From positions 64,001 through 128,000 of the forward strand of contig CAXXJS010000028.1 of assembly GCA_963662665.2 (NCBI GenBank): a stretch of DNA of 64,000 bases, in the 5' to 3' direction. Both the position numbers and the translations under genes were made by a program. Positions within the stretch are counted from its first letter, which is position 1; every line of letters begins with the position of its first letter. Source of the DNA: Candidatus Latescibacterota bacterium (GTDB lineage: Bacteria > Latescibacterota > UBA2968 > GCA-2709665). Under the pieces are notes generated by a model. That model was not told where the DNA came from. It ran no database searches and saw only the letters and a list, made by a program, of their open reading frames with translations. Below are positions 737-30,888 of this stretch, piece by piece.

Positions 737-1384
737 TCATGCGCGCAGGGCGGAAACCCTTACAAGAATCGTATTTCTGTGGTGCGACTCCGGGGTAATG
801 GCCTCAATGGACACGACCGGGCCGTCGGGTCCGAATTCTTCTGCTTCCCGGCGGGCGCCGGGACCCTTCAGCGCAATTAACTCTCCCTTTGTTCTGAGGA
901 ATCCTGACGACAGACGCCAGAGAATGGGCAAGGCGCCCACAGCGCGCGCCGTTACAACGTCGTAGCGTCCCCGATGCTCGTCACGCTCGCAAGCAGCCTC
1001 CGCCCGGTCGGTTAAGACCGACAGACCGTCCAGGTCGAGTTCTCCCGCCAGTTGGTTCAGGAAAAGGCCCTTCATTCGTACCGATTCGAGAAGCACAACA
1101 TTTATTTCCGGGCGGGCGATCTTGACCGGGACCCCCGGAAAACCCGCACCCGATCCCAGGTCCAGCAGGGAAATCGGCCCCGCGGGCAGGAATGGCGTCA
1201 CCCTCAAGCTTTCAATAATGTGGCGCTCCCTGATTTTGTCCCTGTCCCCCCGGGACACCAGTCGCACCCGCTCGGACCATGTCCTGAGCAATGTCTCATA
1301 CCGATAGAACCGCGCGGCCTGTTCCGCCGACAACGCTGTTGACAAAGCGTCCTCGGCCGCTGCCAGGAATTCTCGATCGTTCAC
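737..1384 (-). CDS. rsmG: 16S rRNA m7G527 methyltransferase
   Basis: RHIIESL, LDLGSGAGFPG, DVVTARAV, LKG motifs; GTG at 1384 preceded by GGAGGAG. Confidence 0.93.
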   Translation of the reverse strand: MNDREFLAAAEDALSTALSAEQAARFYRYETLLRTWSERVRLVSRGDRDKIRERHIIESLRVTPFLPAGPISLLDLGSGAGFPGVPVKIARPEINVVLLESVRMKGLFLNQLAGELDLDGLSVLTDRAEAACERDEHRGRYDVVTARAVGALPILWRLSSGFLRTKGELIALKGPGARREAEEFGPDGPVVSIEAITPESHHRNTILVRVSALRA

Positions 1385-1439
1385 GGCTCCTCCACGCGCG
1401 CCCGAATCGCAACGCGCCGATCTCTCCCGCACAATCCGA

Positions 1440-1455
1440 TGTTTCACGTGGAACA
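1440..1455. promoter_or_regulatory. parS: parS centromere site
   Basis: TGTTTCACGTGGAACA, a near-perfect palindrome matching the parS consensus, origin-proximal. Confidence 0.9.
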
Positions 1456-1527
1456 TCAGCGGTCTGCTAAAAGCTTAAACCGAAACACTTGACGTCGGCG
1501 CAATTACGTTGAAAATCGCCAAGGGCG

Positions 1528-1572
1528 CGGACCTCTCCCCCCGGACCCCTCTCCCAGGGGAGCGGGGAGGGT
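1528..1572. repeat. CCCCTCTCCC..GGGGAG palindromic REP-like repeat, copy 1
   Basis: Similar to 43648-43690 (inverted) and 61921-61958. Confidence 0.55.
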
Positions 1573-1723
1573 TAGCGATACGGCCTGACGATATCCGTTT
1601 GCGATGGCCGCGCCGGTATATCGGCAACGTCGGCGCGGGAGCCCTCCCGGAGGCAGGCGGAGAAGACGGAAACCCCTTCAAGAAGTGACAGTTTCCCCTT
1701 CACCTGCGAAGGAGGAAAGGTTA

Positions 1724-2672
1724 GCCTCAATGTGAAAAAAACAGCAACTCGGCAACGCGACGAAAACCCCTGAAACGGGCCGTAACGGTCGTCAAAAAGG
1801 ACGTTTTTTCAGTTCACGTCCAGTCACCGGGTGTATCTTGGTAATCAGAAGTTAAATCGCCTTTATCTACTTGCATATATTCGGTTTTACTTCCCCGAAG
1901 AAGTAGAGTCGAGATGTGGCGCGGTGGTTTAGGAGTGGCCTGTCTGTTCCCGCCCCTTTCGTCTGGCGGTGCCTCAATAGCCCCTCCGTGCTCCGTTTCC
2001 ACATCCCGCTCGTCGAACCGGACGTGCGGAGTTACCGCATCCGGCTCTCCGACGGACATCGCCTTCAGGTACACACTGCCCGATCTGCCCGGACAGCTTC
2101 ACCTGAAACCTTAGCTTGATCTGGAGTCGCCTCGTCTTATTCTGGAGGAGGTTATAGGCTTGCGCCACTCTCCCGACAGTTGTCCCCTTCACAAGCACAT
2201 CCGAAGTCAGGCCCCTTTCCTCCGCCGGCGTTACCCGGCATCACAGGTACTACGAGCCTGTCCGCCACCCCATACGGCCCGGCCTGGCCCTCACGGGCTT
2301 CCGGTTGGTGGCTCTCCACCACCGCTGGGGCTTCCCGTGTTGCGTCGGATCTCCTTGTATGCGTGCCTCCGCCATTACCCCGGCGGGACCGTTGGGTGCT
2401 CTCGTTGCCTGCTTCCCCAACGACGGCGGCCTTCCCCGTTCGCAAGCCGGGTCGGCTCCCGCATTACCCTTTTCGAGGCCTGCTCAGCGTTTACTCACGT
2501 TTCAGCCCACATACTCGCCGAGTCGCCTGGCGACCCTCTACACCGGAGGCTTCGGAGATGTCGTTACCTACGTCTCCGCTCCGATTGCTTCCGACTGTGG
2601 CAACATCTGTCGGGTGGGACTCTCACCCACTGAAGTTCCGCGCCTTTTCACGGCGCACTTGCGAATCAAGGT
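1724..2672. mobile_element. 193-bp MITE-like element copy 1, interrupted by a group II intron
   Basis: 1724-1902 joined to 2659-2672 aligns ungapped to 30622-30814 (~75% identity by manual count); TA on both flanks; imperfect terminal inverted repeats. Confidence 0.75.
1903..2658 (-). mobile_element. Group II intron, ORF-less (IEP deleted)
   Basis: 5' GTGCG at 2658; domain V GAGCCGGATGCG..CGCACGTCCGGTTC (2015-2047); domain VI ending GACTCTAC at 1903 with A at -7; only a short IEP N-terminal remnant (NKTRRLQIKL). Confidence 0.92.
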
Positions 2673-2735
2673 TAGGTGTCGACCCATCGCGCATCTCACC
2701 ATTCGCGCGACCGCAGCACAACCGATCATCCGTTT

Positions 2736-4091
2736 TTACTTGCCGATACAAAACGTACTGAAAATCCGGTCCAAAATCTCCTCCGACGTGGTTTCGCCGA
2801 CTATTTCAGCCAGCGCGTCGGCCGCTTCACGCAAATCCACCGCTACCACTTCCCGTGGAAGACCGTCGTCCAGCGCCGCCGTTGCACGGCCAAGGGCTTC
2901 TCCCGCCCGCCGCAGCGCCTGGACGTGGCGGGCGTGCGTTACCGCGCCGGGATCGGGATCGGAGGCCTCGATTACACGCTCGCGGATGAGCTTCCTGAGA
3001 CAGTCGAGCCCATCCCCCGAAAGGGCGGAGACGTTGAGACCCGCGAACTCGTGATCGCCGCGCCATTCGGCATGAAGGCCGAGATCCCTCTTGTTCATCA
3101 CGAGAAGCACGTTTTCGGGATCCAGGCCCGCAACGATGTCTTTCAACCCCGCGCCAACGGGGACGGACGCATCCACGATCAACAGCACAAGCGCGGCCCG
3201 GGCAATCGCAACCCGCGACCGCCGGGCGCCTTCCCGTTCAATGGCGTCTCGCGGCTCTGCGATACCCGCCGTATCGACCAGCGTCACGCAAATTCCGTCC
3301 AGGGTGATGGACTCCTCAATCGTATCCCGCGTGGTTCCGGACACCGGCGACACGATCGCCCGATCCTCTTCCAGCAGTCGGTTGAGCAGGCTGGACTTGC
3401 CGGCGTTCGGGGGTCCCGCCAGCGCAACGAGGGCGCCCTCGCGTATGACTTTGCCATGCCGATACGAGGCGATCAGGCGCTCGATTTCTTCCCCCGCCCG
3501 TGCGACCGATGGACGCACCGCCTCCTGTTCGACGCCCGCGTCTTCGTAGAAATCCAATCCTGCCTCAAGCAGCGTCAACGAATCCCGGACGGCTTCCGCC
3601 AGATCCTCGAACCTCGACCTCAAGCCACCGCGCAACCGGAAGTATGCGGACCGAAGACCCCGGTCCGCCCGGGCGGTGATCATATCGGCAATCGCCTCGG
3701 CCTGGGTGAGATCGATCCGGCCACTGAGGAACGCCCGCCTGGTGAATTCGCCGGGTTCAGCTGGCCGTGCGCCCGCCGATACAAGGGCCTCCATTGCCCG
3801 CTGCAAAAGGAGAGGGCCCCCGTGGCAGTTGAATTCAACCGTATCTTCCCCCGTAAACGAACGGGAAGCCCGCATCACGGAGACAAGGACCTCGTCCAGG
3901 TCCCGGTCTCCGACAACAAGCCTGCCGTACGTCAGACGGCGGTCCTCAATATGGTTCAGATCGCGTGACCCACAAAAAAAACCGGAGGCGATTTCTACCG
4001 CCTCCGGACCCGTGAGCCGCACGATGCCTATCGCTGCCTCGCCGGAACCGGTGGCGATTGCGACAATGGTATCGCGATCCGAAGGTCTCAT
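2736..4091 (-). CDS. mnmE: tRNA modification GTPase
   Basis: DTIVAIAT, SFTGED, GPPNAGKSS, GTTRD, DTAG, NKRD, C-terminal FCIGK. Confidence 0.97.
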   Translation of the reverse strand: MRPSDRDTIVAIATGSGEAAIGIVRLTGPEAVEIASGFFCGSRDLNHIEDRRLTYGRLVVGDRDLDEVLVSVMRASRSFTGEDTVEFNCHGGPLLLQRAMEALVSAGARPAEPGEFTRRAFLSGRIDLTQAEAIADMITARADRGLRSAYFRLRGGLRSRFEDLAEAVRDSLTLLEAGLDFYEDAGVEQEAVRPSVARAGEEIERLIASYRHGKVIREGALVALAGPPNAGKSSLLNRLLEEDRAIVSPVSGTTRDTIEESITLDGICVTLVDTAGIAEPRDAIEREGARRSRVAIARAALVLLIVDASVPVGAGLKDIVAGLDPENVLLVMNKRDLGLHAEWRGDHEFAGLNVSALSGDGLDCLRKLIRERVIEASDPDPGAVTHARHVQALRRAGEALGRATAALDDGLPREVVAVDLREAADALAEIVGETTSEEILDRIFSTFCIGK

Positions 4092-8587: not shown

Positions 8588-8789
8588 TTCTCAATTGCGG
8601 CGAGAACCCTGATAGTTTACCTGATGCGCCGCGACAGTATAACGACCGATTTCCGTCCTGAATCGGTTTTTTCTGTTTATGTCCGTTCACGTCCAGTGAC
8701 CTGAAGTATCCTGGAAATCCGCCGTCAAATCGCCTTTACTCACTTGCGCGTATTCGACTTAGCGTCCCTGAAAAATGACCAATCAAAGT
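8588..8789. mobile_element. MITE-like element copy 2 (left part degenerate)
   Basis: 8683-8789 clearly matches copies 1 and 3 (GTTCACGTCCAGTGA...AATCAAAGT). Confidence 0.65.
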
Positions 8790-8799
8790 CAGGCTGTTT

Positions 8800-30621: not shown

Positions 30622-30814
30622 ACCTCAATTCGATAAATACAGCAACGCGGCGCCGCGACAAGACCTTCCGAAATGGGCCGAAAAGGTCGTTTAAATGGAC
30701 ATTTTATCCGTTCACGTCCAGTGATCTGAAGTATCCTGGAAAACCGAAGTCGAATCGCTTTTGTTAACTTGAATATGTCCGATTCAACGTCCCCGAAAAA
30801 TGACGAATCAAAGT
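30622..30814. mobile_element. 193-bp MITE-like element copy 3 (uninterrupted)
   Basis: ACCTCAATTCG...CGAATCAAAGT ends; ungapped match to spliced copy 1. Confidence 0.75.
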
Positions 30815-30888
30815 TAGAGATGGCGGTGAATATCCGCGTCCGCCATTGAAGAATCTTTATTGGAAACCACCAGGTCAGGTGAGCAAGT

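Follow-up and report, generated by a model that had tools for sequence, protein, structure and literature searches.

An ORF-less group II intron inserted at the left end of a MITE in an uncultured Latescibacterota genome, with candidate helper introns in the same genome

The window analysed here is a 64,000-nucleotide stretch of a Candidatus Latescibacterota genome (contig CAXXJS010000028.1, positions 64,001 to 128,000 of the forward strand). Close to its beginning, the minus-strand genes mnmE and rsmG are separated by a short repeat, which is itself interrupted by an intron (Table 1). An initial annotation of this DNA had proposed a 756-nt group II intron without an ORF at this place, and the match to an Rfam domain 1 model, the alignment of domains 5 and 6 and the conserved ends all bear this out. 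The intron is complete. On the minus strand, it starts with GTGCG (2658-2654) and finishes with CTAC at 1903, in keeping with the GUGYG 5' end and the AY 3' end of group II ribozymes, and these ends are set independently by the fact that excision restores the repeat. Domain 1 is recognized by RF02003 (group-II-D1D4-4) with 89.7 bits (E 2e-18; gathering score 49). The RF00029 model (D5/D6) aligns over its entire length to 1903-2049 and scores 35.7 bits (E 4.6e-05), which lies below the gathering score of 40 because of a long insert in domain 6. Domain 5 is thus identified by this alignment and not by the curated score. At the base of domain 6, the fold comprises 3 bp, a bulged A at 1909 and then 10 bp; this A lies 7 nt from the 3' splice site, within the 7-8 nt expected. 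Another 3' end, around 1971, came out of the genome-wide RF00029 search with about 30 bits and was rejected, since the restored repeat needs an end at 1903.

Domain 4 of the window copy contains no RT/maturase ORF, and there is no notable ORF anywhere inside the intron. The initial annotation had described a short N-terminal stub of an RT ORF. What remains of it is a similarity of about 30 nt near the former start codon (intron 484-512), where 2147-2175 resembles the ORF-start region of a full-length intron by local alignment; the ATG itself is gone.

Table 1. Features at the intron locus, other copies of the repeat in the window, and full-length introns elsewhere in the genome
Feature	Position	Strand	Basis or remark
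rsmG, downstream gene	737..1456	-	TIGR00138, 124.4 bits, cut-off 99.5
3' exon: remaining MITE (1725-1902) and duplication CTAA (1721-1724)	1721..1902	-	family alignment
IBS3	1902	-	pairing analysis
ORF-less group II intron	1903..2658	-	GTGCG...CTAC ends; Rfam D1 and D5/D6 matches; excision restores full MITE
Domain 6, long distal extension	1906..2011	-	centroid fold; RF00029 alignment with insert
Domain 5	2015..2047	-	33 nt; RF00029 and two plastid D5 models align; hairpin in fold
Domain 4 remnant without ORF (intron 451-605)	2054..2208	-	local alignment to 1975-nt copy
EBS3 (intron A284)	2375	-	column complementary to first 3' exon base
EBS1 hairpin; EBS1 at 2439-2445 (intron 214-220)	2435..2451	-	MFE fold; loop hypervariable
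EBS2 candidate (intron 189-193)	2466..2470	-	hypervariable patch in otherwise conserved loop
Domain 1 core	2495..2632	-	RF02003 match
5' exon: MITE left end (2659-2671, 13 nt) and duplication CTAA (2672-2675)	2659..2675	-	family alignment with flanks
IBS1	2659..2665	-	pairing analysis
IBS2	2668..2672	-	pairing analysis
mnmE, upstream gene	2736..4091	-	TIGR00450, 327.7 bits, cut-off 252.6
Partial empty MITE copy, site TTGGTCA	8682..8793	-	profile search
Empty diverged MITE copy, site TTCGTCA	~30623..30817	-	family alignment
Full-length introns (L001-L003), same genome (G000)	C61:80849-82823, C24:8271-10245, C16:124183-126157		

The repeat family was delineated by cutting all intron copies out of a working version of the genome, followed by an nhmmer profile search. 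This search gave 80 hits at E-values up to 0.001, 68 of them full length. The family unit is 191 bp long, with imperfect terminal inverted repeats of about 10 nt. When the copies are aligned with their flanks, conservation begins and ends abruptly, and the 4 bases outside the left end equal, copy by copy, the 4 bases outside the right end. These tetranucleotides are mostly CTAA or TTAA (YTAA), and the rare TTCA, TCAA and TAGA likewise match between left and right; they are target site duplications. Small, non-coding and multicopy, with inverted ends and duplications, the repeat is a true MITE. None of the 68 full-length copies lies within a gene, all being intergenic according to a crude codon-usage gene caller. 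Once the intron is excised in silico, the window locus becomes a full-length member of the family (profile positions 6-216, E 7.9e-73). The restored element put forward in the initial annotation is therefore real, its size being 191 bp, with a flanking 4-bp duplication at either end, instead of 193 bp. The empty copy to which it had been compared is real too, and merely about 75% identical, copies of up to 96.5% identity being found elsewhere; the sites TTCGTCA and TTGGTCA that had been read in the two empty copies of the window are both correct.

The origin of the MITE was searched for among longer elements. Fifteen elements of IS1380 type (PF13701) in the genome have matched 4-bp NTAR duplications, and their ends share with the MITE ends short stretches only; a MITE-end motif search around longer elements for a parent transposon gave only noise. 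These 15 copies represent one near-identical element of about 1.7 kb with an intact 479-aa PF13701 transposase frame, for example at C28:185449-186741, outside the window, and at C10:121223-122515; no intron lies inside any of them. MITE copies are also found head to tail or nested (C9:10023-10323, C36:43126-43449, C30:42474-42742 and C24:7970-8305). In such pairs, the next copy begins exactly at the common 4-bp duplication, so the ends of existing copies are a favoured insertion place for the MITE.

Eight full copies of the 756-nt intron were found in the genome by BLAST. Compared to the window intron, one is identical, five show 1 difference and one shows 2 (99.7-100% identity). Insertion at places unrelated to the repeat, which had been named beforehand as evidence against a MITE-directed intron, is seen for none of the ORF-less copies: all eight follow the same 13 MITE bases and are continued by the same MITE sequence on the 3' side. 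Each occupied MITE has its own flanks and its own duplication, and the 3' parts of the other seven hosts are 88.5-96.2% identical to that of the window host, i.e. diverged by about 4-11%. Introns differing at 0-2 of 756 positions within such diverged hosts are thus much younger than these hosts and arrived in them independently, which argues against a composite copied as DNA. The pattern points to recent, independent retrohoming as the probable source of the copies. The genome-wide RF00029 search found exactly 11 D5 sites, which correspond to the eight short copies and to the three full-length introns described below. Pieces of other group II introns occur at two further loci of this genome, C5:13735-13948 and C10:148815-148958. 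They correspond to the 5' part, matching the first 145-214 nt of the intron at 78% and 70% identity, and as no domain 5 was detected near them, they are probably truncated relics.

The orientation of the intron relative to its neighbours was also considered. The co-orientation with mnmE and rsmG pointed out in the initial annotation holds at the window locus and does not extend to the genome, since the upstream gene is co-oriented with the intron at four of the eight copies, which gives no transcription bias (the genes around the copies were called with the same crude codon-usage caller). With four of eight copies antisense to the upstream gene, transcription of the introns by read-through is uncertain. 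On the intron-sense strand, local GC skew is negative at five and positive at three occupied copies, negative at seven and positive at five empty cognate copies, and so does not discriminate between occupied and empty cognate sites. Public contigs from four runs covering 1500-3000 of the window end at the MITE and intron borders; among them, no join that skips 1903-2658 was reported, a result that bears neither on splicing nor on the existence of empty alleles. One RNA-library run from another habitat holds only intron pieces of 90-95% similarity, which could be RNA or DNA of a relative.

The occupied MITE copies are not a random sample of the family. A short intron is present in 6 of the 17 copies with the site TTCGCAA and in 2 of the 3 with TTCGCTA, a single mismatch away, against none of the 48 copies with any other site. 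The expectation that copies with TTCGCAA would be the occupied ones thus holds, with this one-mismatch variant added, in the sense that the occupied copies are a subset of them. For the exact motif TTCGCAA, the one-sided Fisher test gives p = 0.0023; for the two motifs pooled (8/20 versus 0/48), a grouping picked after the data had been seen, it gives p = 1.7e-05. Twelve cognate copies are still empty, so the target is not saturated.

This preference is in keeping with the sequence of one hairpin of the intron. The differences among intron variants concentrate in its loop (intron 212-220), which in the MFE fold has 9 nt and is closed by CCCG/CGGG. It contains the EBS1 sequence TTGCGAA, which is fully complementary to the 7 bases at the end of the 5' exon and gives 7/7 pairs at the window locus. 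The position assigned to EBS1 in the initial annotation is thereby corroborated twice, by its placement in a hairpin loop and by its covariation with the exon. Covariation was analysed on 42 copies with exons: this genome contributed 11 and six related genomes 27 ORF-less copies, to which some full-length copies were added. Five unparsed copies, one tandem-intron junction at a contig end and exact duplicates were left out, and 39 distinct intron-site pairs were kept. Between loop bases 3-9 and exon positions -7 to -1, these cognate pairs form on average 6.08 Watson-Crick pairs out of 7 (7/7 in 21 cases and 6/7 in 10), compared to 2.19 out of 7 over 1220 non-cognate combinations; the 39 pairs include kin and are not independent, the separate changes being far fewer than 39. 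Eleven classes of EBS1 loop can be distinguished, most of which match their own sites.

Two further contacts with the exons are indicated by the same comparison. The patch at intron 189-193 is a candidate EBS2, with weaker support than EBS1: facing exon positions -14 to -10, it would form 4 Watson-Crick pairs and 1 G-U pair at the window locus and 4-5 pairs across the classes, with compensating changes in several of them, and misfits too. The column assigned to EBS3 is complementary to the first base of the 3' exon in 18/18 chosen representatives (A:T 10, C:G 5, T:A 3); a single further column qualifies only if wobble pairs are counted. Judged by eye, position +1 is not tracked by the base 5' of EBS1. 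IIB introns contact the first nucleotide of the 3' exon through an EBS3 that is separate from EBS1, while in IIA introns delta, beside EBS1, takes this role. The predicted pairings, with EBS1, EBS2 and a separate EBS3, indicate that exon recognition is IIB-like. Introns of class C (IIC) insert after terminator-type hairpins, have no EBS2 and possess a very short IBS1, as described in part in excerpts of PMC4424553; this class is ruled out here by the 7-nt EBS1, the EBS2 and the fixed sequence address inside an inverted repeat.

The short introns are accompanied in the genome by relatives that do encode a protein, as might be hoped for on the basis of the initial annotation, which had called for an RT-encoding relative with a similar ribozyme. 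Three copies of 1975 nt are found on contigs C61, C24 and C16, with ribozyme parts 95% identical to the short form over intron positions 1-450 and 97% over 606-756. A frame encoding a 441-aa protein is open in every one of them, so that an RT/maturase ORF is present in all three. The protein contains RVT_1 and GIIM domains only (TIGR04416, 354 bits, cut-off 300). It stops 34 residues past GIIM, no endonuclease domain was found in it, and it is in this respect En-minus like class D (RmInt1-like) proteins. Its matches among plasmids and solved structures bear only generic names for group II RTs, and a six-frame search of the genome found no intron RT beyond these three. On these sequence grounds, the 441-aa RT+X protein is most likely the trans helper.

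The relation between the two forms is not a simple one. Over positions 451-605 of the short form, only the 30 nt or so near the former start codon align with the 1975-nt copy, which indicates that more than a simple deletion separates the short form from the full-length copies of this genome. One full-length intron sits at the standard position in one of the 48 MITE copies with other sites (TTCGATT), another lies on the opposite strand about 40 nt into a MITE copy, and no recognizable MITE surrounds the third. Paired with their own exons, the full-length copies form only 3-4 Watson-Crick pairs of 7. The EBS1 loop of the C16 copy is perfectly complementary to the exon ends at the C61 and C24 copies, whose own loop pairs with the C16 exon end only with three G-U pairs. 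The loops thus look swapped, which could result from mis-threading of a 2-kb repeat during assembly or from recombination between copies. Such mismatches cast doubt either on the assembly of these repeats or on the splicing of the full-length copies.

Intron-like DNA was detected in 16 of 21 other genomes of the family that were searched and in none of 19 from the sister family. Among eight relative copies from six genomes of the genus, the domain 4 remnant is 89-97% identical to that of the window in seven and 75.5% in the eighth; the ribozyme core is 89-98% identical across them. The remnant is thus conserved about as well as the ribozyme, which fits a single old ORF-less lineage. In the related genome G009, two copies with a loop fitting TTCGTCA lie at the same MITE position, and in G006, a copy with a loop fitting TTCGAAA lies 13 nt inside a sequence that resembles the other end of the MITE. 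The genome G001 has five copies of another class at one site (L030-L034), all of an ORF-less subfamily, four of which lie inside another repeat that resembles a MITE, is about 175 bp long and has inverted ends of its own. In G013, an element encoding a PF13701 transposase harbours a full-length copy 13 nt in from its end, and this end resembles those of the 15 IS1380-type elements of the window's genome.

The case of G009 deserves particular attention. This closed chromosome, rated 99% complete, contains six ORF-less copies (loci L025-L028, L035, L037 and L125 belong to this genome), three of which are 99.7-100% identical at three different cognate sites. Neither family nor protein searches matched an intron RT in it, its sole RT-like gene encoding a 522-aa Drt8-type defence protein. 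Likewise, no intron RT was matched in G005 and G006, drafts of about 100 contigs in which ORF-less copies are present. Dependence on a resident helper is thus not universal. An unbinned plasmid or a recent loss may lie behind the missing RT of G009, and we find it rather improbable that the ORF-less lineage persists and multiplies where the genome has no gene for a group II intron RT. If this were the case, and if no helper were carried by a plasmid or phage, a non-cognate polymerase or some other route to cDNA would have to be envisaged.

The most probable reading, to which we would give a chance of about 80%, is that a non-autonomous intron retrohomes into the left end of the MITE with an RT/maturase acting in trans. 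The initial annotation had likewise seen a non-autonomous retroelement that uses a non-autonomous repeat as a landing pad, and the precise site, the occupancy, the covariation and the resident RT introns all speak for it. The intron RNA would be transcribed, and spliced with the 441-aa protein of a full-length relative. Reverse splicing by the RNP, with its RT/maturase supplied in trans, would follow at DNA sites fitting EBS2, EBS1 and EBS3, and the left end of the 191-bp MITE would be the corresponding address in this genome. There, IBS2 would straddle the border between duplication and inverted repeat, taking in the final base of the former and the initial bases of the latter, while IBS1 would correspond to element bases 7-13 and IBS3 to base 14. 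Since no endonuclease domain is present in the helper, the primer for cDNA synthesis would have to come from replication intermediates, as it does in other En-minus introns. The anatomy of the intron, its common insertion site, the EBS/IBS covariation, the recent multiplication and the intact helper genes are seen directly in the sequences; splicing, the trans action of the protein and the priming route are the parts of this scheme that we infer.

The common insertion site might also be explained by DNA transposition, the intron being the cargo of an intron-bearing MITE copied by a transposase. The intron indeed leaves both inverted repeats at the outer ends of a 959-bp composite, and 15 intact PF13701 transposase genes are available in the genome. 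Transposition would nevertheless not give host MITE halves that differ by 4-11% around introns that differ by 0.3% at most, nor would it place related introns with other EBS1 loops at other sites fitting those loops. The occupied MITE copies are, besides, no less diverged among themselves than the empty ones, and such an origin seems hardly credible to us. The genome is also a MAG of 66 contigs with 5.4% contamination, and the apparently swapped EBS1 loops of the full-length copies raise the question of whether the multiplicity or placement of the introns is an assembly artefact. This appears very improbable, since the flanks of every copy are unique on either side and join up to form a MITE, and since copies of this type are also present in closed genomes of the genus. 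Moreover, in three public runs, intron contigs have about 3 to 12 times the word depth of long flank contigs where both are listed (X1, X5), bearing in mind that depth is not copy number: the values for intron versus flank contigs are 83-98 versus 7-12, 23-28 versus 5-7 and, for X8, 7-13 versus about 11, without excess.

A different view would see the present copies as recent but inert relics, i.e. neutral intergenic inserts on which the helper no longer works or which are not transcribed. The public contigs, which stop where the repeat begins or ends, give no evidence of expression; every second copy is antisense to its neighbour, 12 suitable sites are still free, and the full-length copies have mismatched EBS1/exon pairs. 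Against this stand the near-identity of the copies, their intact conserved catalytic parts, the three open helper ORFs and a domain 4 remnant as well conserved across species as the ribozyme itself. On balance, inertness is considered unlikely, and trans-assisted retrohoming is retained as the most probable interpretation of the locus.

Several known systems show parts of the same arrangement. Mohr, Ghanem and Lambowitz described in 2010 the 17 ORF-less TeI3 introns of Thermosynechococcus elongatus, which derive from one deletion, are mobilized by the proteins of relatives, have diverged EBS families and prefer other mobile elements, according to excerpts of that article (PMC2882425). As far as these excerpts go, the present introns are alike in that one ORF-less lineage outnumbers its ORF-bearing relatives, with good EBS/IBS pairing at the sites, diverged EBS families, helper proteins that act (here probably) in trans and a preference for other mobile DNA. 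They differ by their host, an uncultured Latescibacterota genus, by a helper without endonuclease domain, by their target, a MITE end, and by a domain 4 remnant that is no simple deletion of a resident full-length copy; our system is also known from its sequence alone. The En-minus class D intron RmInt2 of Sinorhizobium meliloti GR4, reported by Toro and co-workers in 2014, homes into the inverted repeats of ISRm17, and cDNA priming in class D introns proceeds from replication intermediates, as excerpts of that report put it (PMC4615759). Judging from the same excerpts, both systems are En-minus, use transposon inverted repeats as a homing site, which multiplies the targets, rely on a short and tolerant EBS2 pairing and have helpers that are, or here would be, partly interchangeable between relatives. 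Unlike RmInt2, which encodes its own protein in that account, the window copy is ORF-less and its target is a non-autonomous MITE.

Bacterial ORF-less introns are rare and nearly always found beside related introns that encode a helper, according to the part of the 2015 review by Zimmerly and Semper considered here (PMC4424553), which cites C.te.I1 of Clostridium tetani as the one bacterial case of an ORF-less intron whose genome lacks an intron RT. The closed chromosome of G009, with ORF-less copies and no detectable intron RT, resembles the situation described for C.te.I1 in that part of the review. The window's genome differs from it by its three helper genes, and G009 by its several copies, three of them near-identical.

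No description of a group II intron homing into a MITE was found in the open-access literature on introns with MITEs or REP elements; a paper on Thiomargarita reports the reverse arrangement, a MITE inside a group I intron. Trans-mobilized ORF-less introns, EBS divergence and homing into transposon inverted repeats are already published, as seen in excerpts of PMC2882425 and PMC4615759, and the present finding extends known biology and does not change its principle. It gives an example of layered genomic parasitism in an uncultured phylum, with a retroelement devoid of enzyme inside a DNA transposon devoid of enzyme. The genus offers a natural series of EBS1, EBS2 and EBS3 variants matched to their targets, which is of use in work to understand or engineer group II introns that lack an endonuclease. 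Its genomes with copies and without a helper gene are the place to ask how ORF-less introns survive.

Beyond the genus, a hairpin loop matched to the exon also occurs in introns of other phyla whose proteins are 58-78% identical. Among 10 related introns from other genomes or phyla, a transposase gene follows within 1.3 kb after the intron in only two, which indicates that homing into full-size IS elements is not general. By eye, many 5' exons from several phyla (L047-L111) show a YTAR-like tetranucleotide at about -17 to -14, then CC; this is what would be expected from a 4-bp duplication followed by an IS1380-type end, or possibly from recognition by the protein. One large class with the exon end ATCCATG lacks this tetranucleotide, again by eye. 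A TA dinucleotide in the distal 5' exon also gives the impression of being conserved. Finally, four introns (L025, L035 and L037 in G009, L042 in G011) contain a GC-rich palindromic hairpin of about 27-30 nt, located at three different places in otherwise conserved intron sequence, which looks like a tiny mobile or recombining repeat.
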